From the NCBI GenBank assembly GCA_973895155.1, contig OZ316895.1, positions 18,237,880 through 18,301,879 of the forward strand: 64,000 nucleotides of DNA. The letters are read 5' to 3'. The position numbers were made by a program, and so were the translations under genes. Source of the stretch: Marsupella aquatica. Taxonomy: Eukaryota; Plantae; Marchantiophyta. The notes beneath the pieces were generated by a model that was given only the letters and a program-made list of their open reading frames with translations, did no database searches and was not told the DNA's origin. Shown here piece by piece: positions 17,458 through 52,618 of this stretch (position 1 is the stretch's first letter; every line of letters starts with the position of its first letter).

Positions 17458-17513
17458 CCTCCCACTGTGCCCTTGTTAGTGCATAGCACAGCCACACACC
17501 TCCTCTGTCTCTC

Positions 17514-19342: not shown

Positions 19343-19348
19343 TCTTTT

Positions 19349-19366
19349 TGGCGCCGCTGCCGGGGA
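19349..19366 (+). promoter_or_regulatory. Primer-binding site of element B, tRNA-Asp type
   Basis: TGGCGCCGCTGCCGGGGA just after the LTR; near match to the Athila PBS TGGCGCCGTTGCCGGGGA. Confidence 0.85.
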
Positions 19367-26588: not shown

Positions 26589-26610
26589 AATTCCACCTGG
26601 GACAGGTTGC

Positions 26611-26626
26611 AATTTAAGTGGAGGGC
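26611..26626 (+). promoter_or_regulatory. Internal duplicate polypurine tract after pol
   Basis: AATTTAAGTGGAGGGC, identical to 29755-29770. Confidence 0.75.
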
Positions 26627-26971
26627 GGTAGTTATACTTAGTTAGAATTAGTGACCCTCCCTAGTAAGTATTCGGCATATTTTTTTAATTTTTTTTAGTT
26701 ACTTTCAGTTTTTACATTGGACGCTGTGAAAAGCGTCCATTGTAACTCGACACTGGGGAAGCGTCCACTTAGTTTACAAAGGACGTTGTGCAGAGGTCCG
26801 CTTTTGTATTAGTTCAGTTGCATGAGACGCTGTGAGCCGATGACTAGGCATCTTGTACAATGGCGGATTGCGACAGCTCAACGGGACGCTGAGGAGTAAG
26901 CAGTCGCGCTTCGCCCTAGTTCACTATGGAACACGATTCTCACTGAGCTTACGGAGCTAACAAGTCACGCG

Positions 26972-29206
26972 ATGGCGGAGACTGAGCTGACGACGCGACC
27001 AATACTCGCAGACATTCCATCGAATGCAGTGCATAGGCGGCAGTTGAAGACGGCTCTGGCAAAAATGGGCTTGAAGAAGCTGCTTCAACTTCCTTGGAAG
27101 ATTTGCGAATTCAGCCTTATCGATCAAGGTGTCTGGGACGCTGAAGAAAGGATTGGTGTGCGCTCGCGTCCCAGTGTTTGGACTGAAGCGCTCATAGCGA
27201 AGGTCTATTCGACGCCGATGGAGGGCGAGGATTTACAGAGGGTTGATTGTGAGCCTCGGGTTTATGTAGAATCCTTCTTCGCTCCAGGATCTTTCAAGAG
27301 GCGGAATGGATGGCTAGCGGCGGACTGCTTAGATAATTCTCTGCAGCGTCTATTTCGATTTCTGGCACCAATTTTCTACCCAGAAAGCCAGACGCGCATC
27401 ACTCTTTCGTTCGCTGCAACGGTGATCTGTTCATTAGAACAGACGCAGTCTATCAATTGGACGAAGGTTTTGCACCGAGTAATTCATACTCAGGTCAAAA
27501 ATTTTCGTAGCAGGCTGAAAACGGGGAAAATAAGGTGTACCTACTTGGCCCCTTATTTAGCTCACATTTACCATAAGTATGACTGTCTGCTTGTCTTGGA
27601 AAAAGATTTTTATCGCAACAATCAGAGAGCATCTACCGGTGAAGCAAATTATATGCCTGAAGTACGAGAAGTCCGAGCCAATTCCACAGTGGTAGAGCTA
27701 TGTGCAATACTCGACTGTGAGGAACCTGAACTGGTGGGTGAAGTTCGGAAATTGAAAGAGACAAGAGCATCAGCTGAAGGGAGTGACGATCCGATTCTTC
27801 ACCAACCAAGAGAGGCTCAAGTTGCCGAAGATGTTCCTTCAGCAATGCCAACAGGGTTGGAGCATTCTATGTCACCTCGACTCTCGTGTTCACCTTGTGC
27901 TGCCGAGCCTATTTATGATGTTGATCAGGATAATTCTGCTTCTCGGATGAATGTTGAAGATGAGGTGAGGGTGGATGAAGAAGGTTTTTCAGGGGAACCT
28001 CTTCAACATTCTACTGCTGAGGACGAGTATGATGGATTTACTTCTACCCCTGTTTTGGTTCCCATAGAGGCAAATAGTGATGCTTTGCAGGCTTTACAGG
28101 AGTATGATTCGTCCGACTCTCTTAGTTCTAGCCCAAATATAGGTGAAATCCCTCTGGTCCAGGAGTCAGAAATATTAAGCTCAGCACCAGTTTCATTGGC
28201 TACAAACGAGGATAAAAACATTCGGGAGGAGTTTTCAGTGACGTATACTCGAAAATCTTGGAAACGGTTGCGCCATGCTATCAGTCGACAGATCTTTCCT
28301 GAAGCATCTTCCCAGGATTTTGAACAGGGAGAAGCACCTGTCGGAACAGACGAGCTACCCCTTCCTGTACTTTTGACAGATCGAACTAACCAGGAAGTCT
28401 CTTTACCTAGCGATAATTTTAAAGAAGAACTTCCTGTTTTAGTACCAATGCATCCCATTGCAGATCAACCAGCTACTGTTGCAAGAGAAGAATTTGAACC
28501 ATTGGAGCCCGAACCTTCTGCTCCTTCGTCTCCTGTTACATTGCCAATTCGACCAGTTAAGGAGTCAGTGATTCCTTCCGCTATGCCAGATGTAATTTTC
28601 CGTTGGATAGGAGCACCAAGTGATGGAGAAGAAGACGAAGACCCTCGCATTATCAGAGTACCTCCTCGACTTCGGCATACAGTGGATTTGCCACCCCGAA
28701 ATCCTATCCCTAATTTGGCTTCAATTCACAGGTGGGAGAAGAAACATTTTCGAGTAGCTTTTCGACATCTGGAGATGGAGAGCATTTTGCAGCAGCAGCA
28801 GATTTTGCCAATGACATCCCATCCGAGGATTCGTAGTTTGATTCGCACATATGAACCTGGGAAGGCGGTTCCTCCCATTGATAAGGACAGACGACATAAG
28901 TTTTCGGAGTTCGAAATTTGGTGTTGGGTGTATATGCTTCGACGAGCTCAAGCTCCATTTCCGCCCCTTGTGCCGGAAATTCCATGGCCCTATCCATACT
29001 ATGTTTGGGTTTGTCCTGGTGGGTTTGCTATTCCAATTAAATATGAGAAGAAGCTTGTTAAGCTAAGGGAGCAGTTGATTACAAAACAATGTATGCTACC
29101 GGCTTCCCAAGGGTTCAAGTCGCTTAGGTGTTTAGCGTTCCTACCTATTATTCCTTCTTATCCGGATGTGATTATTCAAGGTGTTTTATCTAGGACACAG
29201 ATTTGA
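26972..29206 (+). CDS. Element B additional ORF (744 aa): plant-transposon accessory-type N-terminal domain with acidic and Pro-rich tail
   Basis: Intact sense ORF between pol and the 3' LTR. Shares the GL...LPW, T..IA.V...P and NG(W/F)...C pattern with the family A LTR protein. Confidence 0.8.
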   Translation: MAETELTTRPILADIPSNAVHRRQLKTALAKMGLKKLLQLPWKICEFSLIDQGVWDAEERIGVRSRPSVWTEALIAKVYSTPMEGEDLQRVDCEPRVYVESFFAPGSFKRRNGWLAADCLDNSLQRLFRFLAPIFYPESQTRITLSFAATVICSLEQTQSINWTKVLHRVIHTQVKNFRSRLKTGKIRCTYLAPYLAHIYHKYDCLLVLEKDFYRNNQRASTGEANYMPEVREVRANSTVVELCAILDCEEPELVGEVRKLKETRASAEGSDDPILHQPREAQVAEDVPSAMPTGLEHSMSPRLSCSPCAAEPIYDVDQDNSASRMNVEDEVRVDEEGFSGEPLQHSTAEDEYDGFTSTPVLVPIEANSDALQALQEYDSSDSLSSSPNIGEIPLVQESEILSSAPVSLATNEDKNIREEFSVTYTRKSWKRLRHAISRQIFPEASSQDFEQGEAPVGTDELPLPVLLTDRTNQEVSLPSDNFKEELPVLVPMHPIADQPATVAREEFEPLEPEPSAPSSPVTLPIRPVKESVIPSAMPDVIFRWIGAPSDGEEDEDPRIIRVPPRLRHTVDLPPRNPIPNLASIHRWEKKHFRVAFRHLEMESILQQQQILPMTSHPRIRSLIRTYEPGKAVPPIDKDRRHKFSEFEIWCWVYMLRRAQAPFPPLVPEIPWPYPYYVWVCPGGFAIPIKYEKKLVKLREQLITKQCMLPASQGFKSLRCLAFLPIIPSYPDVIIQGVLSRTQI

Positions 29207-29218
29207 AGAACACCATTT

Positions 29219-29695
29219 ATGAGAGATATCAAACGGTGTTGTCATTTATATGTATATAAGCCGTTACTTTTGCAGCATCCTGCAATTGTTTCCTTCTTTC
29301 TCCTTCGAATTGATATTTATCTGCTCATGTGGGACATCAAAGCTACTATGGATTGTTGGAATTCTTTACCCCGTGCTTTCCAACATTCCTTTGAAGGCAA
29401 GATCAAACTGGGAGGACATGCTATTCAACACTTTGTTATTGATCCAGGCTCTCGAATTAATTTCCTCTCCCACAGACTGTGCCAGCAATTTGTTCATCAA
29501 GAAGTACAACCGATATCTGCTCAGATATCAATCGATGGACGAATCATTAATCTTTGGGGAAGAGTTAAAGGAGTCCCAATACAGATCGGAGAAGAATTCC
29601 ATGACCTCGATTTTTATATTCTGGATTCGGATATCTCCCAACTCCCGTCAATGATTTTGAGCACTACTTGGATTATTAAGCCAGAATATTATTAA
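29219..29695 (+). CDS. Second retropepsin-like (aspartic protease fold) ORF of element B
   Basis: FVIDPGSRINFLS...GRVKGVPIQIGE...LDFYILD...MILSTTWI parallels the element's own protease. Confidence 0.65.
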   Translation: MRDIKRCCHLYVYKPLLLQHPAIVSFFLLRIDIYLLMWDIKATMDCWNSLPRAFQHSFEGKIKLGGHAIQHFVIDPGSRINFLSHRLCQQFVHQEVQPISAQISIDGRIINLWGRVKGVPIQIGEEFHDLDFYILDSDISQLPSMILSTTWIIKPEYY

Positions 29696-29754
29696 TGAAG
29701 AACATGTCACTCGCTTCTGATTCAATTCGGTCATGTCTTGTGGGGACACGGCGA

Positions 29755-29770
29755 AATTTAAGTGGAGGGC
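29755..29770 (+). promoter_or_regulatory. Element B polypurine tract
   Basis: AAGTGGAGGGC ends 2 nt before the TG of the 3' LTR. Confidence 0.85.
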
Positions 29771-29772
29771 TA

Positions 29773-31164
29773 TGTGGTATGGGTGTCCCTGCAATTTTTT
29801 CTGGAAACTTGTTTATTTTTAGCATATCACAAGATTTACTTACACTTTAGACACCTTCCGGCCAACATTTACTTGTTCTGGACACTTATAGAAATATTTG
29901 ACATCTCCGGCTTTCCTGACGATTCCTAGTGTACTTTGCCCGACGCTGTGACCAGCGCCCGTTTCTTTTACTCAAGACGCTGCGGAAGCGTCCAACCTCC
30001 TCATGACGCTTTTGGCAGTGCCCGACCGCCACCAAGACTCTATGAGGATTTCGACCGACGCTGTGGAAAGCGTCAGCTTCAACACACGACGCTGTGAGCA
30101 GCGTCCACCCTAGTATTGACGCTGTGAGCAGTGTGAGCAGCGTCCGTTGGTTTTACTTAAGACGCTTCTAGCAGCGTCCAGATTCTCCCGACGCTTCTAG
30201 CAGCGTCCGCTCAACACTTAGTTTTTGAAGTAGATTACTAGTAAAGTAGTATTCTACCACCCTTGTTGAAGTACTTATGCTGTGCTTCTCCCTTGTTTAG
30301 TTTTAAGCTTGGAAAGGCACGACTGTTCTTACCTCCTCCATTTTAGGATTCCAGCACTTATAAGACAGAGTAGAATGCTCATTTGAAGTAGAGAGAAATA
30401 GAGTTAATACTGTATTCAGAATTGAGTCTTCTGAATAGTTTTCTCCTCCTTCCATTGTAACAAGGCATGCTGTGAGTGTTTTGTATGGAAGTAAAGCTAT
30501 ATTGATTGAAGTTAAGATTGAATTCAAGAGATTCCTGTGGTGATTGAATTCAGTTGCAGATTTCTGAAACTCGTATTGAATTCACTGCTAGGCTTGCTTG
30601 CAGAGTCGGGATTCGCTAGCCAATTCAAGAATAGTTAATGATAAATGAGAAGTAAATTCTGATTCTCAGAGTAGTTAGTACTGTTGCTTTGATTCTGGAA
30701 TATGGTTTAGAGTTTGACTGAATTGCGTATCGCTGATGTCAAACCATGTTGACGGCATTTTAAATCATATCATTCATTTGCAATCAGAAAGCTTCTGCTT
30801 CATCAGATTGAGAATTCCATTATCATTAACCTTTGTGTTTTGAAGAGTGAGATGGATGAATTATGAGATAGATTTCATGTCTATACTGAGCCCAAATCCT
30901 TTCTGAAGGAGTGGCAGTAGCAGCTTGTAGTCTCTAAATCCTTACTCATTTCTTCTCTAATTCATAAATCAGAAGTTCAGTTACTTTGTTGTTTGTTTAT
31001 TCGATTTTTTTTTATTGAGAAGTGAAGTCAACATAGAGCTCAAGACTCTAAATCACTCGGAGTGATAAAAGTTATACAATTCATTCTGAAATCTGTTCTT
31101 AAAGGGATCGAAACCCTGGTTTTAGGTGAGGAGAGTCACTTTTGATACTTAGCACTATACGACA
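29773..31164 (+). repeat. Element B 3' LTR
   Basis: Direct repeat of 17951-19342, followed by the TSD ACACG. Confidence 0.96.
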
Positions 31165-32820
31165 ACACGAAATGGCAGCCGGGGGGACATCTTGAACTCT
31201 GTCCGTTGCATTATTAGGAGTATAACTAGGCCCCAGTGCAGGGGCGATGGTAACATGCAGAGGACACAGGGTCGCAGTGAGCTCCTGTGAGTCAGTAATG
31301 CAGCCAGCAGCTCCCAAGGATGGAGGCAGTCCCAGGTGAGCGGTCTCAACCCGAAAGTCATTTTTCTCCTTCTGCAACCCCACAGGGGCCAGCAGCTCAA
31401 CCCCCCAGGGCTCCGGGTGTTCCAAAAGCTGCTCCACCTGAGCAAAATCCTCCACCACCGAGAAGGGAATAACCTCGAGTGGGGGCACATTAGCCTCCCA
31501 AAACCGAGCCCTTGCTTCAGCATTGGCTTCCGCACGAAGCACCTCCTCATGGTCCGCCTCAGAGTGTCTCTCGTCGTCTTTCTCCTCCGGGGGGTCCACA
31601 ACCGTTCTCCGTGCTCCAACAGCCTCCACGTCTTCTTTACAGTTCCTGGCCAGGTGACCTCTTTGGTTGCATCGATAGCAGTGATAAGGAATGTTTTTAA
31701 AAGTTACAGGTTGCCAAATTACAATGTCTTCACGAATCCGAATCTTAACGCTGGCAGGCACTTCTCTATCCGTATCCCAGAGTATGCAGGCCCGATCGTG
31801 AGGGTATGAGCTAAATTCGTGTCCCTGGATATAGTAAAGCAGAGTCCCTAAAGAGCTAGCTATCTTTCTTCTGCAGCCCTCCAATGCCAGGTCACGAAAC
31901 GGGATCTCAATCCATACAGGAAGTTTAGTAAAGTTCTCACATTTTACATCAAATGACGGCTCCCATGGGAAAGTGTAGACAAATCGTCTCTCCATGAACC
32001 AGGGCGCGTAATTGAGAGCTAGATCTCTATGGTCCGGGTTTTCAAAGACAATCATGTAGAAATTCTTCCCTATGAATTTAACTTGTAAGACAGGCCAATT
32101 CTCTTGATTCGTCATCACCTCATCAACCCAAGCTCTGAAGTCAGTGAGGAGCGGCGTTCTTCCGGTAAAGTAACAGATCAGCGCACAATTATAAAGCTGC
32201 CTCACATTCCGTGCTGCTTCCGGTAGGTTCCATTCCACCTCTGTAAACAAACGTTTGTCCAGATCACCCTTTGATCTGATCGCAATTTCACGTAGGATCC
32301 TAATGCAGTCTTCAGGTTCTTCCTCCTCTAGAGATGCAGCTCGCCTCTCCTCATTCTCTCGTGGCCCCGCTCTCCCCTTTGGTGCGCAACCGAAGCCCTC
32401 AGTTGCGCCTCTCCTCTCATTTCCCCAATCCCTGGGCTGAAAAACATCTCTTTTCGTCCCAGTTCCCTCCGTCTCCTCCAGGGTCCTTGGTAGTCTTGTT
32501 CCCCTCTCCGCGTTGAGCTCAGGCCTGGTTTCCATGGCAGGACGCTTAATGTCCATCATATTATCACTCAATGAGTCCCGGGCAGCGGTAGGTGTAGTCA
32601 AGGCCGGGTCAATCCACCCCGAACGCGCATCTTGCGCAGAGAATTCCACAGGAGGTCCCCTGCCCTCACTTTCCAGCACCGGTGTTCGCTCCATTGCTAC
32701 CTCGTTATAAGCACTAGGAGGCGCTTGCATCATCCTCGCAGCTCGTCCACCAGCAAGGCGCCCCCCACGAGAGAATCTACGCCCAGAGGATCCGTAATAG
32801 TCTATCCCCTGATCACCCAT
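31165..32820 (-). pseudogene. LINE-1 ORF1 N-terminal part (DUF4283-type RRM plus CCHC knuckle), interrupted by B
   Basis: FIGKNFYMIVF...PW...LPVWIEIP...CYRCNQRGHLARNC, the typical plant L1 ORF1 pattern. Confidence 0.88.
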
Positions 32821-33911
32821 CTTACTAACTTCTTCTATTAATCGATTGCCGTGTCATCCACTCAGGAAACAAAGAGTCAAAGTCTTCTCTTACTTACCCA
32901 TGATTCAGTCGACAGTCCGCAGCCTCACGCAGCACACAGCGCCCGAATCGCCATTCTTCCCCTCGGCAGCGCTTAGACAATTCTCTTCCTGGTTATTCCT
33001 TACATATCCCAACAATCACAGAAGAAACAGTCTCCCCGACAAGGATGGCATTTTTCCCCACGATCTTCGTGGCTCACCGTGGTACCCCAAAGAGATCCTA
33101 GTGAAAATTGCCACACCTCCTTCAACACTCTGAGGTCGAGCAAAGTAGATTCCAGTACTTCTCCGCAAACACCTTCCTCTTCACCCTCCTTTCTCAAATG
33201 CAATGAGGTCCAACTCCTACGTCCCTCCGCACGACGCACGGTCACCAGAGTGTCCGTCCGCCATTTTTTGCGCAGGCACCCGAAACGCCAGTGCTTGACT
33301 CAGAGCTCCCGCGACCAAAAGATAAAGGGGTCATACGAGAGCCCGCCACTATTTACTGAACCAAATCCCCTCCTCCAACCTCAATCCCGCAGAACCAACA
33401 TCCTCCTGCTAGAATTTACTGTAACAATCCGTCCCCTCCCCTCCCCTCCCCCCAAAACCAAAGCAGAGGATCTCACAGTAAGTCCTTAAGTGTAGACACA
33501 GCCAGAGCCAGAGCCGCTGACTCGATTCAGCTCAGCCATTTCCAATCCTCTTTGACTTCCCGCTATTCTCTCCCCCCGCCAACCTCGTTGTAAAACTGCC
33601 TTCCCATGCTCTGTTCCCACCGCTGCCAAAACTGAGAGCACACAGTGTGCCTTAATACTCAGTCTCGACTTTGATCGCGCTCGTTTGCAGCTATAGCAGT
33701 ACCGATTCCAAACTGTTAACAGCCCCAACAACTTCACTTGAATGCCAACGTAACCTACTTCATGATTCCTCTCGGATATCCAAGGTCCCTCCCGATCCCG
33801 CAGGGATCAAAACAAAACCACAAAAGGGAGAGCACTTCTCAGTTCCGCCAATGCGCTTTCCAAGCTTTCTCCTTAGTTCTTCAGTGGCAAATTATTATTG
33901 AAATCTTCTTC

Positions 33912-34382
33912 AGATGCAGGAATGAACAATCCAAGATCATCTGCAAATAATCTGTAACAGATCATGAGGGCCTCAGAGATTTGAATACCTCTCAGTCGTC
34001 CATGCAGAATCTCCTAATCCAGATAGTCCATGAGAGGTTGAGTAGCAATCGCAAATAAAAGAGGAGATAACGGGCAACTGGATTTCCTTCGAGAACATGC
34101 CATTCAAATGAACCCTGGAGCCCGCGCCAGTGAGTAAGGATCTCACTAAACTAATGTAGTGACTACAGAGTCCAAGCAAATGCATAGCTTCCCAGATGTA
34201 GGAGTGGCAGACTCTGTCGAAGGCCTTCTCAAAGTCCAACATAAGAAAAAGAGAGTTTTTCTTGTTAACTCATATCCAGTCGACAGTCAACCAGGCAACC
34301 GAGATGTTTTCTAAACTGTGCCTGCCCAGAATGAATCCGGTTTGCTGAGGACTAATAAGCTTGTGTAGAAGTGGTTTAAGGC
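33912..34382 (-). pseudogene. LINE-2 ORF2 RT core fragment
   Basis: LKPLLHKLISPQQTGFILGR, LDFEKAFDRV, CYRLFADD. Confidence 0.88.
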
Positions 34383-37300
34383 TGTGGTGCGTCCCATGGC
34401 TCCCTAAACCCAAGAAACCCCCCAGCTCAAGCCGATTCCCGCAGGTTTCGTGCTTGGCGAGGCCGTCTCCGCGGCTTAGCGGCATGGGACGTTGCTAACC
34501 TTCTACTACTACTATTAACATTTTACACACATATACTGGACAGATCCTTCATCGGGTCATGAGATACGTAGCCGGCCTAATATAGGCCTTCCCCTGTCTT
34601 CCCCTGTCTTCCCCTCCGTCTTGTTAGGTATGTTTGGATTCCGCCGCCGGAATGATCCCCAATAGGCTTGGTTAAGCCGCTAAGACCTCTCTCAGCTCGA
34701 CACATCCAACTCTCACTCCCCTGCTTACTTTCCTTCCTTCTGTTGATGTGGGCACTCTTCACACAAGTTAATGCGACACACAAATAGCAAAATGACTCAT
34801 TCTGACTGAGTCATACCATGCACTTGCCATACAAACAGTACATCTCATACACAAGTTCTGCGAACTAAGCCGTGAGGCCAACTCTATTCAGCTCTTAGGC
34901 ATGAGGAAACATGAATATACACAAGGGTCACTGTATGACTAACCGAGAGCTTCTCGTACTACTTGATCCCAGCCCGGCTGGTGCAAACTAAAAACTTGCT
35001 AAAGAAGAGGCCCTGAGCTCCCCGCTGCCCAGGTACTTATCCTGGTAGTGGATCCGCCATTCTTTGCATCGTAAGCCTAATCTACTTAACAGTAATCTAC
35101 TTGCCCGAATCTACCTATGTACAGCAAGGCAAGAGCACAAGTGTTGCTCCTACCAGTGGGACCGCAATCCCACTAAGCTAAGTGTCAGGGCCGCTCCTGG
35201 TTCTGATCCTAATCCTAAACGTGGAGATCCGTGCCCGCCCTGCCCACTCACGCCTCCTCCCTCCACGTCCGCCCTCCCTAAAAGGAACGGCGCCCTTGCA
35301 CCGTCACGACACCGGGGGTGGATCCTCAATGGACGCCCCCAACACTTCCTCCTCAGCCACTGCCGTTGGCCCGCCTACTGACAGATTACCTGCCCTTGAC
35401 CGAGTCAACTCTCCATCGGCCTGACTGGGTCCACCTTCGGCTTCAGCCTCGACAACTCCCACGGCTTCGGCTTCAGCCACCCCCACGGCTTCGGCTTCCC
35501 CTTCCCCTAGGGTAGTTGGATCCTTAGCCGTGACCCTGTCTGGGGTCGGTGCTGGGTCTACCTCCTTGATCACCACGGCCTGTGAAGTCGTATTACTCCT
35601 TGACCCTGAAGGTTTTCGCTTCTTCTTCGTTGGTGGCTCGGCAGCTGGTCCCTTCCCCTTCCCACTTACCTCCGGCACTGGTGCAGGTGGGGCGGCTTGT
35701 CCTTCGGCAATTACCACCCCTGGTAACTGGTTTGTCCCAACAGGAGATGGACCTGCTGCAGCTAAGCATTTAAATACTGCGGCTTGTTTCTTCAGCCGCT
35801 CTGTTTGGTTGTCGGCCCGCCGCTGTAGGTTCTCCATCTTCCTCGTGATTTCCTCCAACTCCTCTTGGGTTTCATCCAGGTCCTTACGTGCCCCCTCCAG
35901 CTCGTTTTTGGCCTCCTCCTGCTCCCTGTGGGCTTCCTCCAATTCCTTCTTCAAGGTAGCCTTCTCCTCCTGGGTTGCTCTTAGCTCCTTGTCGAGCTCT
36001 GCAATGATGACAGACTCCATCTGGTTCATCTTGGCGTAAGTCTGTTCGAGCATCTCGTCCTTCTCCCTTAGGTCGGCCTTGAAGCTGGCCGTCAGGGACG
36101 CAAGCTCCTGCTGCAGCGCCATAATCCCTTGATAGGATTTCCCTAACTTGACTTCCTTCTGCTCAAGGGCTCCGCGGATTTTCTCGAGCTCCCCTTTCAA
36201 CGCCCATTCCTTTCTTTGGGTCTCCGCCATGGCCCGGCTGTTGGTTGTTATGTGGGCCTCCTCTGTATTCTTCAGCTCTTGCTTCCACTTTTCCCTTTCT
36301 TTGATCGTGTCGGCCAACTCTTCCTGCGTCTGAGTCAGTTTATCCTTGATATTCTGATTATCAGCCTGCGCGGCGTCCAACTGCCCCTGCATGATGTTCA
36401 GCTCATGTCGTTTAATCCGCAGTTCATCTTGGGCTTTCTTGGCCGCCCTTAGATCTTCAATCTCGGCTCCCATCCTCCTAAGCCGCCGAATGACCTCGTC
36501 CTTCTTGCTTCTCTCTAAAGCCACCGCTTCTTCTAATTGGTGCTTCTCCAACTGCTCCCTATGGAAAAAGGGTCCTACCTCCAACTCCTCTCCAAAGATG
36601 CCGAGCGCAAGTTCCCCACACATCTCACCATACTCCATGGCTCTATTCTTAGCGTAGGTGGAGTAAGTAGAAGTGATCGGCATCGCCCATCGTGGCCTCT
36701 GCTCCCAAGCCGTCCTGCGGATCTCTTCAATCGTGGCTAGAGGTTTGCTTCCTTTTTCGGCTAGCCGCCTGATGTCCTCCGGCCAATCTCCTCCTGGTAA
36801 ATCCTTTTCCTTAGCCAGGGCGGCCTCTTCCTCCTGCTTGATTCGCTCCTGAAATTCCTGCACCGTCTGTTTTATGCCGTCGAAGCTCGGGGGAGCAACA
36901 TCTGGTGGGGGAGACTCAGGGCTACTCTGTTGGTTGGGGTCCCCTCGCACTACCCTTGGAAGTGTGGGGACAAACCGGCCATAGGTCCTTACTCCTGGAA
37001 CGTGATGGTCCGACCCATAGCCGGAATTATCATGGCTGCAGTCCTCCACTGCCTCCTCTACCTCTTGGATTTCCGGCTTCTCCCTCTCCTCTTCCTCGGT
37101 AGGAGCTTCAAGCAATTCTGCCTCAGATTCGGAGCTTGAGGTTCCCACGTACATTCGAACACCTGGCTTGGATTCCGGCCTGATTCTCTCCTTGTCTCCA
37201 GCAAAGGGGTTTTCTCTTGTGAGCCGGTGTAGGCCTACCTCTGTAGTAGTGTCCTGCATTGTTGCCGTTGCCGTTGTCGTTGCCGATGCCGATTTCTTTT

Positions 37301-39006
37301 CTTTCTCCAGTAGTTTCAGCAGACTCTGCATGCCTGGTTGCTGCATCGGCAAGTCTTCCTTCCTGGGCCTAAACACCTGCTCGATCGTAGGACTAACAGG
37401 TGGTTGAGGCTTCTCAGCCAACGGCCTCGGCGTTGGAGCTTCCTCGGGTGCCCTTACCTGCAGGGGAAGTACCGGGGCAAAAGTCTGACCTCTGGCATAC
37501 CAGCACAACAGCGGCATGTGATAGCCAAGCCGCGACACGCTCCCCATGCCGATTACCTGCTGCTCCTCCTTTAAGATCTTCTTCAATTGGTTGAGGAGGT
37601 ACCCGTTGTAGTCCCGGCTTGGGTCTGGCCTTTCTACCAGATAGACCTGTGCCTTGCCGATCTCTGCCCTCGGCAAGTTACAATGCATGGTCACCCGCAA
37701 GAAGTCGATCATCTCTCCTATGTGCGGGTTGGTGCAGGTGTTCCGGAAGAAGCCATTCTTCGTTGATGGCCCGGGGAACGACCGGAACTCCTTGTCAGGC
37801 AAGGTCTTCCTGGTATCAACTTTGGTCTTATTGCCCATCGGCAAGCCAAACACTTCGGCAATCACCTTGGGAGTAAGATAGAAATCCTTCCCATATATCC
37901 TCGTGCAATTGGTCTCGGGTTCCCATGACCCCACGAATTCTAATAGGTCTGACTCCGGTACCTCCGGCTTCAGCCATGGTAATCTTACAAAGGCCTCCAA
38001 GCCGGATCCGGCCATGAAGCCTTGGTACTTCTTGGTCTGCATGGCCGTAAAGCATGCATCCTCCTCCCGTGCAAAATGTAGTTGCACCTCCACCGGTAGG
38101 GTTGCCGCCCAGCCCTTCCAGGTGTCATCCCTGGTTGGAATGGCCTTGATGGGATCGACCTCCTCCTCTTCGGCTTCTCCCTGCCTCCTGCTCTGCTGCT
38201 CGGCTGGCTTCTTTGGTGCCGCCGACCTCGTTCTTTTTGCCGGGGTGGCTTCATCGTTGACGGCTCCCTTCCTCTTCATCTCTGCTGCCGTGGAGGTTTC
38301 TCCTAGCACCGTTGCCTGGGTCCACCTTTCCGTGCTACCCTTTAATTCCCAGTGTATGTCGTTGCAGTTCTTGATGGCCTCTCGGATGCCGACGACGCTG
38401 TCTTTGCAAAACAGAAGATCGTCGAGTTGATTGGAAGTAGGCGTCCACAGGAACTCGTCCTTGATGAGTTCGCCTCCTAAGAAAGCCGTCTTCTGCAGCT
38501 CCCACAATCGAGCGAGCTCCTGCCGTTCTCGAGCTGCCCTTTCTGACTCCTCGTCCTCGTAAGTCTTGATGTACTCAGTTGCCCGTTCGAACAGGCATCC
38601 CCAGAAATGTGCCGCTTGATTGACGTTGCTCATACCCTCCTTAGGTTGATCGTCGGTATCTACTCTCTCCCCGAGTGCTTGCCTAAGCAGCTGACAGTAG
38701 TTGGCCTCCCGTAGTCGTCTGCCTAGTTCGTGCTCGCAAATGAGCCACCATCTCCTGCAAGCGCTCCTTACCCCTCTCCTCTGCCGGTCCTTCTTCCCGT
38801 TGATCCTTCCTAGCCGCCGACGCTTAACGCGCCCTAACCCTAATCGGGTTTTCACCCTCAGCCTTACCTCCGGCCTCTGCCCGGGTTCCATGGTTGCCCC
38901 TAATTGTTTATATTTTCCTTGTTTTGTCACTATACTAAGGTGTTCCTAGGGTGCCTTCCTGCTTTACCCACTTAACCGGCCGAGTGATTCCTGTCTAGGC
39001 ATCACA
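34383..39006 (-). mobile_element. Family A solo LTR copy 3 (4624 bp)
   Basis: Termini TGTGGTGC...GCATCACA; 5-bp TSD AAGGC (34378-34382, 39007-39011); splits KILALR|LKPLL of the LINE-2 RT. Confidence 0.94.
35304..38891 (-). CDS. Intact LTR-encoded protein (about 1100-1200 aa depending on start): accessory-type domain, acidic linker, long coiled coil
   Basis: Uninterrupted ORF filling about three quarters of the LTR; ATGs at 38891 and 38633. LLEFVGSW...IYGKDFYLTPKVIAEVFGLP resembles plant-transposon accessory domains. Synonymous changes and in-frame indels occur between copies. Confidence 0.85.
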   Translation of the reverse strand: MEPGQRPEVRLRVKTRLGLGRVKRRRLGRINGKKDRQRRGVRSACRRWWLICEHELGRRLREANYCQLLRQALGERVDTDDQPKEGMSNVNQAAHFWGCLFERATEYIKTYEDEESERAARERQELARLWELQKTAFLGGELIKDEFLWTPTSNQLDDLLFCKDSVVGIREAIKNCNDIHWELKGSTERWTQATVLGETSTAAEMKRKGAVNDEATPAKRTRSAAPKKPAEQQSRRQGEAEEEEVDPIKAIPTRDDTWKGWAATLPVEVQLHFAREEDACFTAMQTKKYQGFMAGSGLEAFVRLPWLKPEVPESDLLEFVGSWEPETNCTRIYGKDFYLTPKVIAEVFGLPMGNKTKVDTRKTLPDKEFRSFPGPSTKNGFFRNTCTNPHIGEMIDFLRVTMHCNLPRAEIGKAQVYLVERPDPSRDYNGYLLNQLKKILKEEQQVIGMGSVSRLGYHMPLLCWYARGQTFAPVLPLQVRAPEEAPTPRPLAEKPQPPVSPTIEQVFRPRKEDLPMQQPGMQSLLKLLEKEKKSASATTTATATMQDTTTEVGLHRLTRENPFAGDKERIRPESKPGVRMYVGTSSSESEAELLEAPTEEEEREKPEIQEVEEAVEDCSHDNSGYGSDHHVPGVRTYGRFVPTLPRVVRGDPNQQSSPESPPPDVAPPSFDGIKQTVQEFQERIKQEEEAALAKEKDLPGGDWPEDIRRLAEKGSKPLATIEEIRRTAWEQRPRWAMPITSTYSTYAKNRAMEYGEMCGELALGIFGEELEVGPFFHREQLEKHQLEEAVALERSKKDEVIRRLRRMGAEIEDLRAAKKAQDELRIKRHELNIMQGQLDAAQADNQNIKDKLTQTQEELADTIKEREKWKQELKNTEEAHITTNSRAMAETQRKEWALKGELEKIRGALEQKEVKLGKSYQGIMALQQELASLTASFKADLREKDEMLEQTYAKMNQMESVIIAELDKELRATQEEKATLKKELEEAHREQEEAKNELEGARKDLDETQEELEEITRKMENLQRRADNQTERLKKQAAVFKCLAAAGPSPVGTNQLPGVVIAEGQAAPPAPVPEVSGKGKGPAAEPPTKKKRKPSGSRSNTTSQAVVIKEVDPAPTPDRVTAKDPTTLGEGEAEAVGVAEAEAVGVVEAEAEGGPSQADGELTRSRAGNLSVGGPTAVAEEEVLGASIEDPPPVS

Positions 39007-40691
39007 AAGGCGTAAAGCCAAGATCTTAGCCACAACCTTGTAGATGGTATTGAGCATAGTAAGAGGGCGCCAGTCCTTCAAACATCTTTTATCGGGTTTC
39101 TCCGGGATCAATTTGATCACACCTTCCTTCATGTTAGCCGAAAATTTTCCAGTTCTCCAGAAATCCAGAATCATCTCATAAATGTCTTCTTTCATAAAGT
39201 GCCAACAGGATCTGTACACTTCGGAAGTGATACCATCAGGTCCCGGTGCTTTGTCAGCCGGAAGTAACCAAAGAGTAGAACGAATCTCCTCCATCAATGG
39301 GGGGGATTCCAGTTGCCTAATTTCAGCTACCGTAAGCGACTTACCAGTGTTAGCAAAGAGTTTGCGTCTAGCTTCTCTGACTTCAAACGAAGTACTAAAA
39401 GCCAAATCCTCCGGCGCCTCGTAAAGAGCACAGTATTGTTTTTCTACTTCTTTCAAAATACTATCTTCTTGAGTTAGTATGTCGCCATTATCAAGAAGTA
39501 GCATAGACATGTTTTCTCTGAGTCTTTTAGCCTTGACCATAGCAAAGTAGAACTAAGATGGTTCGTCTCCCTGCCCCAGCCATTTGATCCGTGAGAGTCT
39601 CCTGCCCATTTGTGCCTCTTCATGTTCAGCTATTCTTACCTGATCGTCCACAATAGCAAAATCAGCGATGTTTGATTCAGATAGTGAACTAATCAGGGCT
39701 ACCTTAAGTGTTCGCAGACGATTCCTCAAGAGAGAGATTTCCACCTCTCGGGCAAGTGGTGCGGATTGTAATTCCTTGTATTTTTCCCGCAGCCTTAAAC
39801 TAGCCAGATAAAAACAAAGGTGAGGATCCACCACCCAATCTTCTTGTACCTCCCATGCACCGCAAAGTTTTTCCAAACAGCCTTCAACTCTGAGCAGCCC
39901 CACATTGGCCTTGAAATAGGAGGATTTGTGTGAGGTTGTTCCCGACTCCACATTAGAAAGACGGAAGTGAAGAACGATAGGATCGTGATCCGAAAGTGCA
40001 GATCCTCCTTCGTGACAAAGTTCTACAACCAAATCTGTCCACCAGCTTTTTCCACTAAGGTAAAATTGGTCAAGTTTAGACTGCACCACAGACCCATTAA
40101 TTTTCTGTCGCCAAGTGAAGTTTGCGCCATGAAAGCTCCGAGTAACACCAATAGCATCCTCCAAATCAAGTCTCATTTTAAAAACCTCCAGAATTCTGCC
40201 TCCCTTCCTCTGATCAGTGGCGATGAACCAGACGAATCATTTCTGCTTTCAGTCATATTGAAATCCCCACAGATAATCCAGTTGTTGTGAGGAAGGGATA
40301 TTTTGAGTTCATGCCACAGTAGAGCACGGTCTTGAGGGAGATTAGGTGCATACACACTTACTAGACCAAAGTTTCCCAAAGGGTGAGAAACACGCACCCA
40401 CACAGCGCGGCCTTTGTCTACTACTCTAGATTGGGTGATAGAAAGAGAGGGGTGAATAAGTAACAAAGTACCCCCGCGTCCGTCATCTGGCTCAGCAGAT
40501 AGATATTGATAGGAAGGTAGAATCAATTGAAGCGCTAGACCTAGTCTAAAACTATCAGCTTTAACCTCTTGTAATGCTAAGGCAGTCAATGTTGTCTTGA
40601 GCGAAATAATCCAATTTTTCACCACATGTTTCCTGTTCGATTCGCACAGACCACAGACATTCCATGAAGCTATATACAATTCATTATCCAT
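39007..40691 (-). pseudogene. LINE-2 ORF2 endonuclease and RT N-terminus, with nonsense changes
   Basis: SWNVCGL, CGDFN, SDHDPI, APGPDG, WRPLTMLN. Confidence 0.9.
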
Positions 40692-40864
40692 TTTAGTTTT
40701 CAAAATGTTCTTCCAACTCTCATAAGAATCAGGAGACGAGAGAGGCCATCCCAACAGAAAATGCAGATCAGCAGATAAGCAGATCTTGAGGAAAGCCCAA
40801 AACAGATTCTCGAAGCACTTATTTGGCATGGCGCCCCAGGGAAGTCAGGACGACCAAATTGGAG

Positions 40865-43153
40865 TTAGCAGCCGAGCGCATCCGAATTAAAAGAGTCCGG
40901 AGCAGGAGGTTCTCGAGCAGGGTAATGGAGAGAGCGTCCCTTCTTGTTGTCACCCTTTTTGTCCTTCTTCTTCTGGTCGGTAGGTGGAGTTCGAAGTTCT
41001 AGTTTTCTTGCTCGCTCCTTCTTTAACTGGCTCTTAGAAATATATTCCTCATATTCTGACATCTCTATATCAGATCCACCCCGTAGAGAAGCCTCCTCGA
41101 CATTAGTGGTAGGTTGAATATCCATGTAATCTATGTTTGAAGTTGGCTCCACTGCAAGAGAGGAAGGGCTCGGTACAGCAACTAGGGAGTCCTGCTTGTC
41201 AATTTCTGCTGCTCCATGCTTCCTCAAAGCCTGCGAATCAGATATTCTCTCTATAGCAGGCCAATCCACTACGCTAGGGATAACATCCTGTGAACTATGA
41301 TCTTCAAAGAGAGCATTGTCTCTGAGAAGCGGAGGACGATTTTCAGTGGAACGATCAGCCAGGGGAGTCGGAAGGATGGTGGTAGAAGGAGAAGATTCTT
41401 CAATCCCCACCGGGGTGCCAATACTGGGAGAACGCACTTTATCAATCAAAACAGCAGCCAGGGACGAAGTCTGATATTGATTCAAAGGTGACCTGGGGCT
41501 AATAACACTACCCCCTCTAGAAAGGGCAATGATATTACCAATGTTAAGGGTATTTCTCTCAACCGTAGGATCAAGAGGATCGACCCCTGGAGGGCTAGCA
41601 GCCGAAGATCACCTAGCCACGCCAGCACCAGTTGTCGCAAGGATCTCTTCCGGTGCCCGAGGAGAGGGACCCAAAGGGACCCCCCCAAAATCAACATGAA
41701 TAGAGTCAGAGGACCGAGGAACCACCCTGTCAGAAGCATACGTCTCGTCCGCCTCATTGTGTGTCCTATCTGGTTCAGGTTCGTCGTTTTTAATCTCCTA
41801 TGTTTTAAAGGCTTTGCACTGTCTGGCTAAATGGCCCCGTTCATTACATCTAAAACAGTGGTAGGGAATATTCTTGAACGTGATTGGCTGCCAGATAGTG
41901 ATATCATCGGTGATCTCAATTCCAACACTTTGAGGGATCTTGCGACACATATCCCAAAGTATACATGCACGATCATGAGGAAAAGAGCTTCGAACATCTC
42001 CCTGGATATAATAAAGGAGTGTCCCAAGGGATTCCGCGATTCTTTTCCGACAACCTTCAAGAACCAGAGCATGGAAAGGGATCTCAATCCAGACAGGTAA
42101 TTTGGTGTAAGTTTCACTTTGCACATCAAAAGAAGGCTCCCACGGGAAAGTGTGGACAAATTTCCGATCCATGAAAAATGGGGCCAGCTCTAAAGCTACA
42201 TCTTTGTGTTCCGGGTGAACAAACGAAATCATGTAAAAATTCTTGCCCACAAATTTAATCTGCAAAACCGGCCAACCCATGTCGCTGATAAAGATGCCTT
42301 CAACCCAATCACGAAAGACTGGAAGCAGAGGAGTGCGGTCAGTGAAGTAGCACATCATGGTGCAATTGTAGAGCTCCAAAACTGAAAGGGCCGCCTCATC
42401 GAATGACCACTTGAAAGTAGTGTGGAGCTTATTCGGCCAATCTTCCCTAGAATTGTTCAAGATTGTCTTTAGAATATCCAAACATGCTTCTGAATTTTCC
42501 CCAAAAAAGTCGTCGTGTTCATGGATGGGAGCAAACGTGTTCTAGTGAGCCTGCTGACGGCTGGAAGTAGGTTCAACATTGTTTTCCAATCCCCTGTAAT
42601 TCCTCGATATTCCAAGATCAGGATCTCTACGTTCATCCCAGCGCTCACGTGAAGATTCAGGCTGCACAGGGTCGTTCTGGCGATCTCCAAAGACAGGGTG
42701 AGGTCCCAAGTGAGGAGCAGCATCCGCATCCGGCGGGGAAGCAAGAGGTCTCTCCTCAACGACAACAACTTCTTGAAAATCTGCATCCATTTGATCAGCC
42801 CACGAAGGACCATTTCTAGGAATGAATCGAGAAATCCTTGGAGGCTGTTCAGCTGGTGGTCTTCGGTCATGCTTTGCCAAGTTGTCAAAAAGGTTGTAGG
42901 GTGCATTCTTCGGTCCTCCGCGCGCATCCTGCATAGAGAATCTACTGGGCACATTTCCTCCTATACCCCTCCTGATTTCATCTCCATCACGTGTATTACC
43001 CCCCTCAGACAAGGGTGAGCCATCATTCCTCCAAGAAGTGCCATGATACCGATTCCTGCCAAATCCTCTTCCAGACAAAGCAGCACCGAGTCTACCAGGC
43101 CCTCGACCGGCATATGCACGAGTATCCATTCCAGTGCGCCAATTGTAATCCAT
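40865..43153 (-). pseudogene. LINE-2 ORF1, several in-frame stops
   Basis: Track ORFs 42542-43153, 41798-42481 and 40865-41485 share one frame; knuckle CFRCNERGHLARQC. Confidence 0.85.
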
Positions 43154-43767
43154 AGTTCAATGTTGCTTCAAAATAGGGAGCGCAAAGGATCCAAGGACCA
43201 TAACGAATGTCTGTGTTGAGACTACCAAGACCAGAGACTCCGCTACAGCATCGTCCTACCTCAAATGCTCAGAAGTTAGTCTGAATGCAATCTATCACAG
43301 CGCAAAAGGTGTCGAGAAAAAGCTCTAACGCTCCTGTATCCAATGAGACTGACGACGTATTTACCAAAAATCTTAAACTTGTGTAAACCCAGAACGCAAA
43401 TGTGAGATGCTCAAGCTCTCACCGCTCTCACCGCTCTTCTTCGCTCCTTCAGCTCGCTACCCTTTTTGCTTTTGTCTGGGATGAAAGTCCAATCAAAGAA
43501 TGCCATCTGTACTTGGGACCGTTGTTCGAATGGCTGGGTACATTGTATCGGTGTCTTAATACGAGGTTGAGATCGCTCGTTGGGGATAATTTAGTCCGTC
43601 TAATTGCTCAGACCTCGGACTGTACGAGTTTGTCATGTGCGTATGTGCATCCTTTATTGGTCCCGTACATTTTGAGACGTGATCGTCACAAGAACTGCAT
43701 GGCACGTATGACAGTGCTGGGTGGTCGAGTCGCTCTCCATGGCAACTTTTGGCTGGGTGATACGAGA

Positions 43768-44133
43768 ATGGGGGAGGCTGATGGTGGTCATTCTGAGTCC
43801 TCTCAGTCTTCGTTTGCTGGTTCAGTATACACCCGTCGCGTCACTCGATCGACTGCGACCCTGTCAACTTCCAAAGCTGAATCTGCACAGCCCTTCCCGA
43901 GGTCGAGGAGAGGGAGAATGGACCCTAAGGAGGTTTCCATGGGTGAAGTCAGTGACATAGGCTTATCGATGGACGAGGTAATATCAAAGCATGCATTGTC
44001 GTTTGGGAAGGATTTTCGAGGATTCGATAAGGAGCCACCTCAAATTCCTCTGTGTAGATTGCTCCCCATGGAGGTTGTTCGAACCTTACAGAAAGAAAGT
44101 GCATCGATCGAGAAGTTGAAAGAATCATTCCGG
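43768..44133 (+). pseudogene. Element C copy 2: N-terminus of the ParB-like gene, cut by element D
   Basis: GSVYTRRVTRSTA...SFGKDFRGFDKEPPQIPLCRLLPMEVVRTLQ matches 62126-62473. Confidence 0.8.
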
Positions 44134-44556: not shown

Positions 44557-45462
44557 CTCTCCTTTATTCAAAGATCTCTAAAGTTTAGAGATTACAAACA
44601 ATAATTTTATGTCCTTTGCAGTTTGGTCATTCTTCAGCTGGGGTTTCAGCCTCGGTTCAGATCAACTCAGGTCATTCAATTGGGTCAGGTTTGGCCAGTC
44701 GTGCTTTCAAGTTCCAATTCTAATGGGGTTGTCCTTTGGAATTAGTTTCTCCAGGATTCGGGGTTCATTCATGATTGCTTCCAGAGTTCCTCAAACTCAT
44801 CCTTGACTCTTTCTTTGAGTTAGGGATCTTTTTTATTTCATGTCTTTAAATTTCTCCATTTTTCACTTTCCTTATCCACTATAGTACAATTCAGTTGTCC
44901 TTGACTGAATAATTTGGATCTTTCTTTTCCTGCTTCTTGTTCTCTGCTGCCAATTTGCCTTGCTTCACCCAAAAAAAGCCAAAACCTCATTAACAACGTT
45001 GTTTCTTGAGTTACCCCTCTTTCGAGTTTAGCTTTCTTCAGCAGCCGAGCACCTCCGCAGCACCACAAAATCCATTACCCAACAATCCCTCTCTTCCCGT
45101 TCTGTCACTTCCGGTCCTACTTCTTCAGAATTCCTCACGTGCTTCCGCCTTCACCCGAAGTTTCCATTTCCAAATTCCAATTTGTTCGGCCACATCTCTC
45201 TTCTTCCCCACTCGAATTCCTATCGAAAGCTCTCATTTTTTTCCTGCTTCATTCCTTCACTTTCTAATCCCCACTTGTGAATCGCCCCTCCTTTTCATGT
45301 CACCTGGAGCCTCATTGCCCTTTTCATTCGAAAACGAGACCCACAGCGATCAACAACTTTCAGCTCCAAACGGCTGTCTTCCATTCGGCAGCACATCACT
45401 TTCTCAATTTCTTCCTAAATTTCACACGTCATGTAGTCAAAGATCAGTCGTTACTCTCACTT
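44557..45462 (-). repeat. Part of the element D 3' LTR shared with the 5' LTR remnant
   Basis: High-identity direct repeat of ~55357-56260. Confidence 0.88.
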
Positions 45463-45782
45463 AGCATCTGGATCATCATTAGCTCAAACCTTTGGCAGCG
45501 TTCCTCAGCTTCAATTCCTCCCCGGTTCACTTCAATTGCTTATCGTCTTTTCTTCTCATTTCCTCTCTTCTGATGAAGTCTCCAATTCACTCGAAAAGCC
45601 CGACTCTGATCACGCACGCACACTTTTCCTTGAAAAGTGTTCGCCTCAAAAATCCCTGTCCTCCGCTGTTAAATTCCTTCTCTTTCCTTATGAGTTCTCC
45701 CTAGCGTCCTTTCTCACGACATCAACTTTTTTGTGAACTCCTTATCCCCTTCTTCACCTGAACACTGTGCAACCTCCGCCGA

Positions 45783-48024
45783 TGTCCTGAGGATAAGCAA
45801 AGAGGTGGGAAAGGGCCTCAAGGGACACGCAGGGTGTATGGCTGCTTGAGATAGGAAACGGTTGCAAACAAGACAAAGTATCTACCCTAACCTTTCATCC
45901 ACATCATCACAAGCAAGCAAGCATGCATGCTTTCGAAACTCAAGCCATTTACATACTCATATCCAATCACAATCAAAATAACTAGTTCAAGCTTCCCAAT
46001 GTAATCCTCACAAGTCTAAGCCCAACATTCAATTGGTCACCATTCCTTTTCCAACACTTGATTGCACACAATCCCTTGCAACCCTCTAAGGTACACAAGT
46101 TCAAGCTTACATCAATGTGGTCAAGTTAAGGGTCACTCTTGGTTGTGGCTAAGACAAGTGGGACATCCAAAGGTATGCAAGGCATCTCTATGCACCATTC
46201 AAACATCCAACTTTCAAAACATGGGAAACTACTTTCGAAAAGTGACCTAGGGTTGGTCAACAAACTCCTTAACAAACATGGAATTGACCTTAGTCCCTTC
46301 CTCTAGTAGAACCACCAAGTATAATCCACAAACAACCCATTCCATCAATCGAAAATGCCTTCACTCTTTACTCTTGCAACTTCCCTCATGCATAATAACT
46401 ACTTTCGAAAGTACCTTCATTCAACCCATCTACTTTCAAAAACACCTTCAAGCTCACAACAACATTCGAAAATGGCATGAAGACATTCATTCTAACCATT
46501 CCATCACTCATAGCCAAAGCAAGGCATCAACACACATCTCAAAAACGAGGATACCTCTCCTCTAAATGCATAGCAAGAAGGCACTTGTAGCATCATGGCC
46601 TCCAAGTAAAAACATGGGTCACAAGCAAGACCCTCCTAGCAAAAATGAATCATCACCAAGTCTAATCATCAACCAAGCATTCAAAATCCCTCCATAGCCT
46701 ATCCAAGCTTCAAAACCCTAGTCTCCTTCTCTCATACTTCCTTCTTTCAACCAAATCTACTTTCGAAGCTTCAAGTCAAGGAGTTTACAAGAGAGTAGGC
46801 CTTCTTAGTGAGCCATCTCTAATGCAAGACTCCCAAGCTTCAACAAGATTAGGTCTCATCTCCTCTAAGCTTTCGAAAATCTCCTACAAGTCCATTCTCC
46901 TCAAAACTTGAAGCAACAAACCTACATTCGAGTATGCCTTCTTGTGGGCAATCTCTCATGCAAGCTCCTTATACTTCCTACTCACATCCTACCTCCTTCC
47001 TAAGGCTTCGAGTCAGCCTCTCCTACATTCGAAACCTCTCTCCAAATCCTTAGAAAAACCGTCACAAAACTCAATCTCTTCACATTCAAAGCTTCTACTC
47101 CATCTATCTCTTCACAAAATTGCCTCTACATCTCCTACCCTCAAAATCCTAAGGCCATGGCCAAGGAGGAGGGCTCCCCCTTCACTCATGCCTCATGCTC
47201 GAGCTCCCCTCAAGAGGTTCGCTCCTACCTATTCAAAACTTACTCAAAGACTCAAAAACTGCCAAAAGCGGCAGCACTTTAGCAGCATCACGGTGTGAGA
47301 GAGAGCCCTTGCCCTTCGAACTCTCCTCTTTAGTACTCTCGTGGGAAGGCCTGGGGCAAGGCACAAGCCCTCCACTTATGGTTTAAGTCCTCGACAATTT
47401 TCAGCCCTTGATCATCCATCAAAAAGATCTAAGGGTAAAAAATGAGCCAAAATACCATCCTTTGTAACTTTGTAACCAAATGAGGCTTCGCACTTTCGAA
47501 AAAACCTCGACCTCCTCCAAACCCTAAGGCATGTCCTCATCCTCAATCCTATCCATTCATCCATTGACTCAACCAAGATCCACCATTGATGTAGGTTCAA
47601 TGAATCTAGTCCTTATTTCACAAAACTAGGAATCTGGCCCATATCTCACAAAACTGATGCACTTGGACCAAACCCTCTTACATGCCTTGAACCTGGTCAC
47701 CTCCTCCATGTATTCAATGAACCTGGTCACCATGTCGCCAAAACCCTAGATACCTTGCTTGTTGAGCAAGCAACCTCCATTCCGCCAATCCGCCAAATGA
47801 TAACTTAATCGCTGGTCACAAATGAAAAACATACCCCACAATAGTAACAAGGGTGGGTAGGCTCGACCTCATCCCTACCTTGACCCTCATAACTCTACTT
47901 CCTCCTTCACATTGGTCAAGTTAGCTCAAGTCAAGTCAACTTGCCCAAGTTAGAAGCAAAAATTGGTTTCAACTTCCTTCACAAAACATGAGGATTCCTC
48001 CTTTAGGATGGAAACCTCATGACA
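45783..48024. mobile_element. Element E: 2242-bp solo LTR-like insertion
   Basis: Termini TGTCCTGAGG...CCTCATGACA (9/10 inverted match); 4-bp TSD CCGA (45779-45782, 48025-48028); no convincing ORF. Confidence 0.75.
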
Positions 48025-52613: not shown

Positions 52614-52618
52614 GGCGC

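Follow-up and report, generated by a model that had tools for sequence, protein, structure and literature searches.

Can a long terminal repeat (LTR) of a plant retrotransposon hold a whole protein gene, and what might such a gene do? As a rule, LTRs carry no coding sequence, and hosts remove retrotransposon genes through the formation of solo LTRs; when a gene of ~1,100 codons sits within the LTR itself, it is spared. The question is raised by a 4.6-kb unit at 34383–39006 of a 64,000-nucleotide stretch of Marsupella aquatica DNA (assembly GCA_973895155.1, contig OZ316895.1, positions 18,237,880–18,301,879), hereafter the window, to which all coordinates refer. We consider it very probable that the unit is a true LTR with a gene under selection. 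On balance, we interpret it as the LTR of a plant non-chromovirus Ty3/gypsy element, whose ~1,100-codon gene is predicted to encode a nuclear DNA-binding regulator of VANC/PMD fold, with anti-silencing as its most likely role.

Self-comparison of the window identified three copies of the unit, at 34383–39006 (copy 3), 3955–8618 (copy 2) and 1–2417 (copy 1), and the limits given to it in a preliminary description of this DNA proved exact. Copy 3 (minus strand, 4,624 bp) has TG...CA ends with an inverted terminal match of 7/8, and it is inserted in a LINE (long interspersed nuclear element)-like repeat between two AAGGC target-site duplications (TSDs; 34378–34382 and 39007–39011, plus strand). 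Copy 2 (4,664 bp) lies on the same strand, is 94% identical to copy 3, and is flanked on both sides by GTTGG. In the element sense, both copies start with TGTGATGC and end with GCACCACA, and the chance probability of a 5-bp TSD match is ~0.001 for each. Each is a single LTR with a TSD and no adjoining primer-binding site or polypurine tract; likewise, no polypurine-tract-like run occurred upstream of either copy, as expected for solo LTRs. Their earlier designation as solo LTRs with perfect 5-bp TSDs was thus borne out.

Copy 1 ties the unit to a retrotransposon. It lies on the opposite (plus) strand, is 81–83% identical to the other copies, and represents the 3′ part of a diverged 5′ LTR, which is cut by the window start and covers residues 828–1212 of the open reading frame (ORF). 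It is directly followed by TTTTTGGCGCTAGATGGAGGGG and then gag: the primer-binding-site-like sequence TGGCGCTAGATGGAGGGG at 2422–2439 (plus strand), whose tRNA we take to be Asn, precedes the gag of an element referred to here as element 1 (2614–3953, plus strand; Retrotrans_gag, E 8.8e-6; zf-CCHC, E 4.1e-6). This gag is interrupted by copy 2, and the rest of gag, the protease (PR) and the start of the reverse transcriptase (RT) follow at 8619–10774 (plus strand), after which the element is truncated. The observed site and gag domains agree with the preliminary argument that a unit preceding a primer-binding site and gag is an LTR. The protease and pol of element 1 were 38% and 49% identical, respectively, to those of a sister Ty3 element at 17951–31164; the Ty3 gene order is represented in element 1 by gag-PR-RT start only, and the sister has RT, RNase H (RH) as well as integrase (INT). 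Because element 1 breaks off near 10774, its 3′ LTR is unseen. The available text of PMC6317226 defines the Ogre/Tat/Athila (OTA) non-chromoviruses by a non-Met primer site, an extra ORF and no chromodomain; the primer site starts with TGGCG in both elements, each family has an extra ORF, and no chromodomain match was found in the sister pol with the Pfam HMM (hidden Markov model). Since plant non-chromovirus LTRs of up to ~5 kb are known (PMC6317226, available text), the length of the unit alone is not new. In sum, the unit is very probably a true 4.6-kb LTR. As a separate observation, copy 1 contains a 293-bp AT-rich insertion (154–446) with inverted ends (TCGGGGGT.TCAC) and a 7–8-bp target duplication, AGTTGGC, resembling a miniature inverted-repeat transposable element.

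The ORF itself lies on the minus strand of the unit as a stop-to-stop frame of 1,213 codons (35304–38945) that is open only in copy 3. The ~1200-aa ORF originally described as intact in this copy is therefore open over its full length, but the protein is likely ~1,109 aa, from Met105 (38633) to the stop (35304–38633, minus strand), because codons 1–104 are unselected (dN/dS, the ratio of nonsynonymous to synonymous substitution rates, of 1.3, and a stop at codon 34 of copy 2) and because alignments with the relatives P0008 and P0011 begin near Met105. The open frame upstream of Met105 (38634–38945, minus strand; ATG at 38891) is likely a 5′ leader, and Met19 was rejected as a start. Using pairwise counts with a transition weight, we obtained a dN/dS of 0.36 between copies 3 and 2 over codons 105–1060 (57.5 synonymous and 54.5 nonsynonymous changes, p 1.4e-7) and of 0.30 (p 3e-7) for the 184 codons compared between copies 3 and 1, both well below 1 in the comparison that the preliminary description had proposed as a check. 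All five sub-regions of codons 105–1060 gave 0.24–0.43, with p < 0.025 each in four of them, and the C-terminal 153 codons gave 0.67 (p 0.08). Among the other frames, four of five gave 1.0–1.4; the low value (0.38) of one antisense frame was dismissed as a shadow, as that frame shares third positions with the ORF. These ratios indicate that the ORF is under purifying selection. Judged from such comparisons, selection acted while the family replicated, and a low ratio among copies scattered over different sites speaks for the lineage that was replicating.

Indels pointed the same way only in part. From codon 105 on, five of six had a length divisible by three (with an overlap between comparisons for two of these five), versus 2 of 12 in the non-coding tail; the reported in-frame character of the indels thus held for most, but an 8-nt duplication in copy 2 and the 293-bp insertion in copy 1 depart from it, and the 3-nt indel cited near 8470 is real but falls in the unselected codons 1–104. 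Stops near 7842 and 5761, together with the duplication near 5992, disrupt the gene of copy 2, and the visible part in copy 1 has one stop besides the insertion. Hence, the proposal that solo-LTR formation leaves the gene behind holds in that a solo LTR physically retains it, but two of three copies are broken. Separately, copies 2 and 3 diverged by 10–27% at unit positions 3201–3600 (35407–35806) versus 1–7% elsewhere, and there copy 2 has extra sequence in common with copy 1; recombination between subfamilies or a fast-evolving tail likely accounts for this jump.

Several parts could be distinguished in the predicted protein. An N-terminal helical domain (residues ~105–227; 38265–38633, minus strand), for which structure comparison matched only generic helical bundles, is followed by a basic stretch resembling a nuclear localization signal (NLS; residues ~224–240). 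The globular domain (residues 279–500; 37446–38111, minus strand) has a predicted VANC/PMD/ATHILA-like fold. Residues 795–1060 (35766–36563, minus strand) are predicted from composition and heptad windows to form a long coiled coil; this region is 68% E/K/Q/R/L/A with 7 P or G in 266 residues, and Fourier analysis of the entire stretch gave a flat result. Low-complexity sequence and coiled coil together make up more than half of the protein. The predicted fold was confident, and the only solved structure resembling the globular domain was DNA-bound VANC21 (PDB 9LNK), an anti-silencing factor. Searches of PDB and viral models with Foldseek returned nothing at E 0.001; the best viral row had E 0.019 and a TM score of 0.34. 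Language-model atlas neighbours were Transposase_32 and ATHILA clusters of unknown function (scores 0.89 and 0.87), which serve as leads only. Word-seeded protein searches, one of which covered only proteins of 1,303–3,720 aa, returned no relatives, and neither did metagenome scans, in which three exact 18-mer matches with no further similarity were discarded as chance. No transmembrane helix was predicted (highest 19-residue Kyte-Doolittle mean, 0.86), and an env-like role was rejected on that ground.

A homologous domain was found in an ordinary position in the sister Ty3 element (17951–31164, plus strand). This element sits in a LINE and is intact and very young, with 1,392-bp LTRs that are 100% identical, the TSD ACACG, the primer-binding site TGGCGCCGCTGCCGGGG, gag, PR and RT-RH-INT. 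Its internal 3′ extra ORF of 768 codons (26900–29206, plus strand) matched the LTR-resident domain with E 1.4e-7 in a leave-out profile and E 3e-4 in blastp, and because this homologue sits 3′ of pol, a 3′ origin of the LTR-resident gene is suggested. The sister LTR carries 14 GACGCT/AGCGTC half-sites, mostly arranged as spaced palindromes within 270 bp (0/200 shuffles), and the palindromes GACGCT-N6-AGCGTC are present in both LTRs (18120–18385 and 29942–30207). This array is a candidate binding array for the element's own extra-ORF protein, in keeping with what VANC-type action of the sister protein would predict. A short ORF (29207–29695, plus strand) with a weak Asp_protease_2 match (E 0.024) follows directly after the extra-ORF stop.

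A DNA-binding regulator is, by a small margin, the likelier product of the LTR-resident gene, and an anti-silencing function in particular would be plausible while falling short of probable. A number of results weigh against this interpretation. The VANC21 match had an rmsd of 4.3–4.6 and 7–8% identity, at a Z level that the tool calls common; VANC21 was absent among 179 Foldseek rows, and a sequence profile against PDB gave a single row (E 0.72) and no VANC21-type chain. Pfam HMMs detected no DUF1985 or DUF287 match at E up to 0.1 and no PMD, Transposase_28/32 or ATHILA match, and 25 relatives likewise gave none, so the suggested link to the PMD, Transposase_28 and Transposase_32 families lacks a sequence match but persists as a lead from the fold and the language-model neighbours. 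A shared fold is no proof of function, and host PMD proteins also act in silencing. Repeated target motifs are predicted for VANC-type action, and their absence from the unit's LTR counts against it: no 6- or 8-mer was over-represented in the LTR non-coding parts, the observed count being reached in 165–200 of 200 shuffles. Differences between copies were enriched at CG (6.3%) and CHG (5.0%) versus 2.5% in other contexts, and therefore the copies have been methylated. In addition, two of the three genes are already broken; copy 1 belongs to a diverged subfamily (81–83% identity) with only the last third of the ORF visible; no element with two 4.6-kb LTRs was recovered, as element 1 is truncated and the run contigs described below are short; and a 3′ LTR is indicated by a single contig, whose run bears a different species label.

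Among the alternatives, the one that survives best, though we regard it as unlikely, accepts a true LTR and a real gene but assigns the protein a structural, trafficking or integration-targeting role like that of ATHILA ORFs, such as scaffolding through the coiled coil or tethering to chromatin, or that of a negative regulator limiting the element. The atlas neighbours of unknown function, the large low-complexity and coiled-coil share, the missing motif array, the moderate VANC match and the CG/CHG-biased decay would all suit such a protein. It accords less well with the sole solved structural likeness being a DNA-bound anti-silencing factor, with the NLS-like motifs and lack of a transmembrane helix, and with the pairing of a homologue and a palindromic motif array in the sister element.

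The position of the gene within the LTR bears on a second alternative. The only TATAWA of the unit is a TATAAA at +95 (38907–38912, minus strand; same position in copy 2), a candidate promoter; it lies 21 nt before Met19, so the Met19 ATG would precede a start site. Splice-donor-like sites occur at unit positions 140 and 236 in both copies. Downstream of the ORF is a 921-bp non-coding tail (34383–35303, minus strand), a candidate for the 3′ untranslated region (UTR), poly(A) region, R and U5; it is T-rich at unit positions 4001–4200 and contains no canonical TATA. The tail differed from copy 1 by 11.8% versus a synonymous dS of 0.43 and, being more conserved than synonymous sites, holds constrained elements. 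Just after the stop, a 45-nt purine-rich block followed by TG (35231–35275, minus strand) shows one difference in three copies and, as a lead only, may be what is left of a polypurine tract used earlier, ~870 bp from the end; other tail blocks were equally conserved. We place the gene, with fair probability, in U3 rather than in R or U5. Were it instead in a very long R or U5, the +95 TATA would be the main promoter, the ORF would come first on the genomic RNA, and splicing from the +140 or +236 donor would give access to gag-pol, as for an Ogre/Retrosat2-like 5′ ORF inside the repeat. The solitary TATAWA, the donor-like sites downstream of it in both copies, and the TATA-less tail are consistent with that arrangement, which nevertheless seems rather improbable: the strong-stop DNA would have to be 4.5 kb long and the 5′ LTR poly(A) region would have to be read through, the sister homologue 3′ of pol points to a 3′ origin, and the tail is strongly conserved, as expected of an LTR promoter and poly(A) site.

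Contigs from public sequencing runs bear on the ends of the unit. Part of it was present in 15 public runs from ten studies, at least half of its words in six; these runs bear four organism labels, and none is recorded as RNA. We examined contigs from 5 of the 17 runs listed and did not take contig depth as copy number. Near-identical sequence appeared under the four labels in runs X1–X6 (59–79% of words); therefore, the family is common to related hosts or has moved between them. Contigs covered the whole unit continuously, with cover dropping at both ends. Loose ends at 34383 (35 contigs in X2, agreement 0.38; 4 in X3) partly spelled the reversed primer-binding site, and among those listed at 39006/39007 there were 7 in X2, 4 in X3 and 1 in X6. 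Beyond this end, the X2 and X3 cells were mixed, as numerous sites of insertion would produce; the X6 contig ran on into the polypurine-tract-like AAGGGGGA, one base before the terminal TG; a AAGGGGGA-like run precedes 139 of 127,976 window positions (chance ~0.001 per site). One X2 contig joining 34377 to 39007 represents an empty form of the copy 3-type site. Run X7 was uninformative, having no contig on the unit's 5′ end. Apparent internal deletions in X1 and X2 were rejected as evidence, since the positions at which they recurrently end (36720, 37707 and 38005) coincide with GATC; most joints in the examined runs fell at GATC and resemble ligation artefacts, as in proximity-ligation libraries. 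Another X2 contig joins 35237 to 34383, that is, the LTR 3′ end to a point ~855 bp from it, and may reflect a derivative with short LTRs, one insertion nested in another, or an artefact.

We find it improbable that the unit is instead a complete small non-autonomous element, or that the true LTR is its last 0.9 kb with copy 1 an LTR shared by two tandem elements, despite the unseen two-LTR element, the purine block and TG ~870 bp from the end, and the X2 contig leading from 35237 back to 34383. No direct repeat was found between the unit's own ends, and it is therefore not a small element with short LTRs; two independent copies have TSDs at the 4.6-kb ends, the loose ends of X2, X3 and X6 stop at 39006/39007, one of them entering a polypurine-tract-like run, contig cover is unbroken between the ends, and most run joints look like ligation artefacts. 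That the ORF is a passively copied relic without present function, as two broken copies of three might suggest, is hardly credible given the low dN/dS, which holds across the sub-regions from codon 105 to 1060 and even for a pair as close as copies 2 and 3 (94% identity), and given the in-frame indels and the confident fold.

For the favored interpretation, that of a selected regulator gene in U3, the following course is conceivable. An accessory gene on the 3′ side, equipped with a TATA promoter of its own, would have come to sit downstream of the polypurine tract in use, as plus-strand priming shifted to a purine tract upstream of the gene's promoter, and promoter, gene and 3′ UTR would thereby have joined U3. 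Reverse transcription would then copy the gene, as part of U3, into both LTRs, making each LTR self-contained, with the TATA at +95, leader, ORF and 3′ UTR. The globular domain may bind element DNA and the coiled coil oligomerise, so that the protein would promote transcription of family members in trans, against host silencing. Recombination between the two long LTRs would yield solo LTRs in which the gene persists until decay disables it. A bolder version, which we rate as rather doubtful, holds that the LTR is an anti-silencing cassette transcribed from intact and solo LTRs alike and that OTA extra ORFs are the likely older source of the VANC/PMD fold. If true, the host's main route of retrotransposon deletion would leave in place genes acting in trans to lift silencing from the family, and OTA extra ORFs, back to liverworts, would be the retrotransposon counterparts of that fold.

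The window holds further repeats. LINE-like elements hosting Ty3 insertions lie at 13627–17990, 31099–32853 and 39007–43156, with DUF4283 and zf-CCHC in ORF1 and RT and zf-RVT in ORF2. A second LTR element (44557–56260, minus strand) has 907-bp repeats that are 98% identical and whose ends, as found, are not TG...CA, a broken gag-pol (RT, RH and integrase zinc finger matches) and a strong C skew. Two diverged copies (65% DNA identity) of a multi-exon-looking gene region occur at 10776–12600 (plus strand) and ~58600–62600 (minus strand), with a piece at 43981–44132; one copy truncates element 1, and the only Pfam match was a weak N6_N4_Mtase (58638–59201, E 0.002). A 43-bp tandem repeat lies at 60137–60253.

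How does this gene compare with known systems? The superantigen gene sag of mouse mammary tumor virus (MMTV) encodes ~320 aa. Like the present gene, it is an accessory gene mostly in the LTR U3 (PMC4667437); the available text of that source counts solo LTRs for 490 of 527 sag contigs and attributes the low dN/dS of MMTV-like sag to the replicating phase, orthologous insertions being neutral. The present case differs in being a plant retrotransposon, with a whole gene of ~1,100 aa and a candidate promoter inside the LTR, and in encoding an unrelated protein. Literature listings on genes inside LTRs, which mostly leave out subscription papers, returned MMTV sag and none for plant retrotransposons, and those on VANC, Athila, PMD and anti-silencing gave no title on LTR-resident genes. 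Rice Retrosat2, RIRE3 and RIRE8 likewise have large LTRs (>3 kb), many solo LTRs (429 versus 162 complete elements) and an extra ORF of unknown function, but the Retrosat2 ORF0 is described, in the available part of PMC3485330, upstream of gag-pol and not in the LTR, and the accessible text of PMC6317226 lists this group with the Tekay chromoviruses. The OTA extra ORFs, whose families include PMD (PF10536), Transposase_28 (PF04195) and ATHILA ORF-1 (PF03078), are also comparable: they too are non-chromovirus accessory genes with a non-Met primer-binding site and a predicted nuclear or DNA-binding role. As presumed from the outset, they are placed internally, 5′ of gag or between pol and the 3′ LTR, in the portions available of PMC6317226, PMC7264820 and PMC11963269, unlike the present gene, which lies inside the repeat and has no sequence-level Pfam match.

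VANC21 of Arabidopsis VANDAL21 resembles the LTR-encoded protein in predicted fold over ~200 residues and, by the available text of PMC5735166, is likewise an accessory protein encoded by a transposon that combines a coiled coil with variable regions of low complexity. It differs in that VANC proteins come from Mutator-like DNA transposons, and the LTR-encoded protein has 8% identity to it, no DUF1985 match and no LTR motif array; VANC has been called dicot-specific (PMC13547354). Through VANC, the modelled domain may also belong to the fold family of MAIN, MAIL1, MAIL2 and the Gypsy-encoded PMD-A proteins. PMD-A clades are Gypsy-encoded, and PMD-motif modules oppose Polycomb silencing (PMC5418596; 10.1101/2024.09.27.615353); these proteins are from angiosperms, as host genes or internal ORFs, unlike the LTR gene, which has no PMD Pfam match. 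If the favored interpretation is true, sequence-specific anti-silencing would reach beyond the DNA transposons of dicots and also occur in retrotransposons of non-seed plants, and the VANC-like fold predicted in common with the sister 3′ extra ORF offers a testable answer to the role of OTA extra ORFs.

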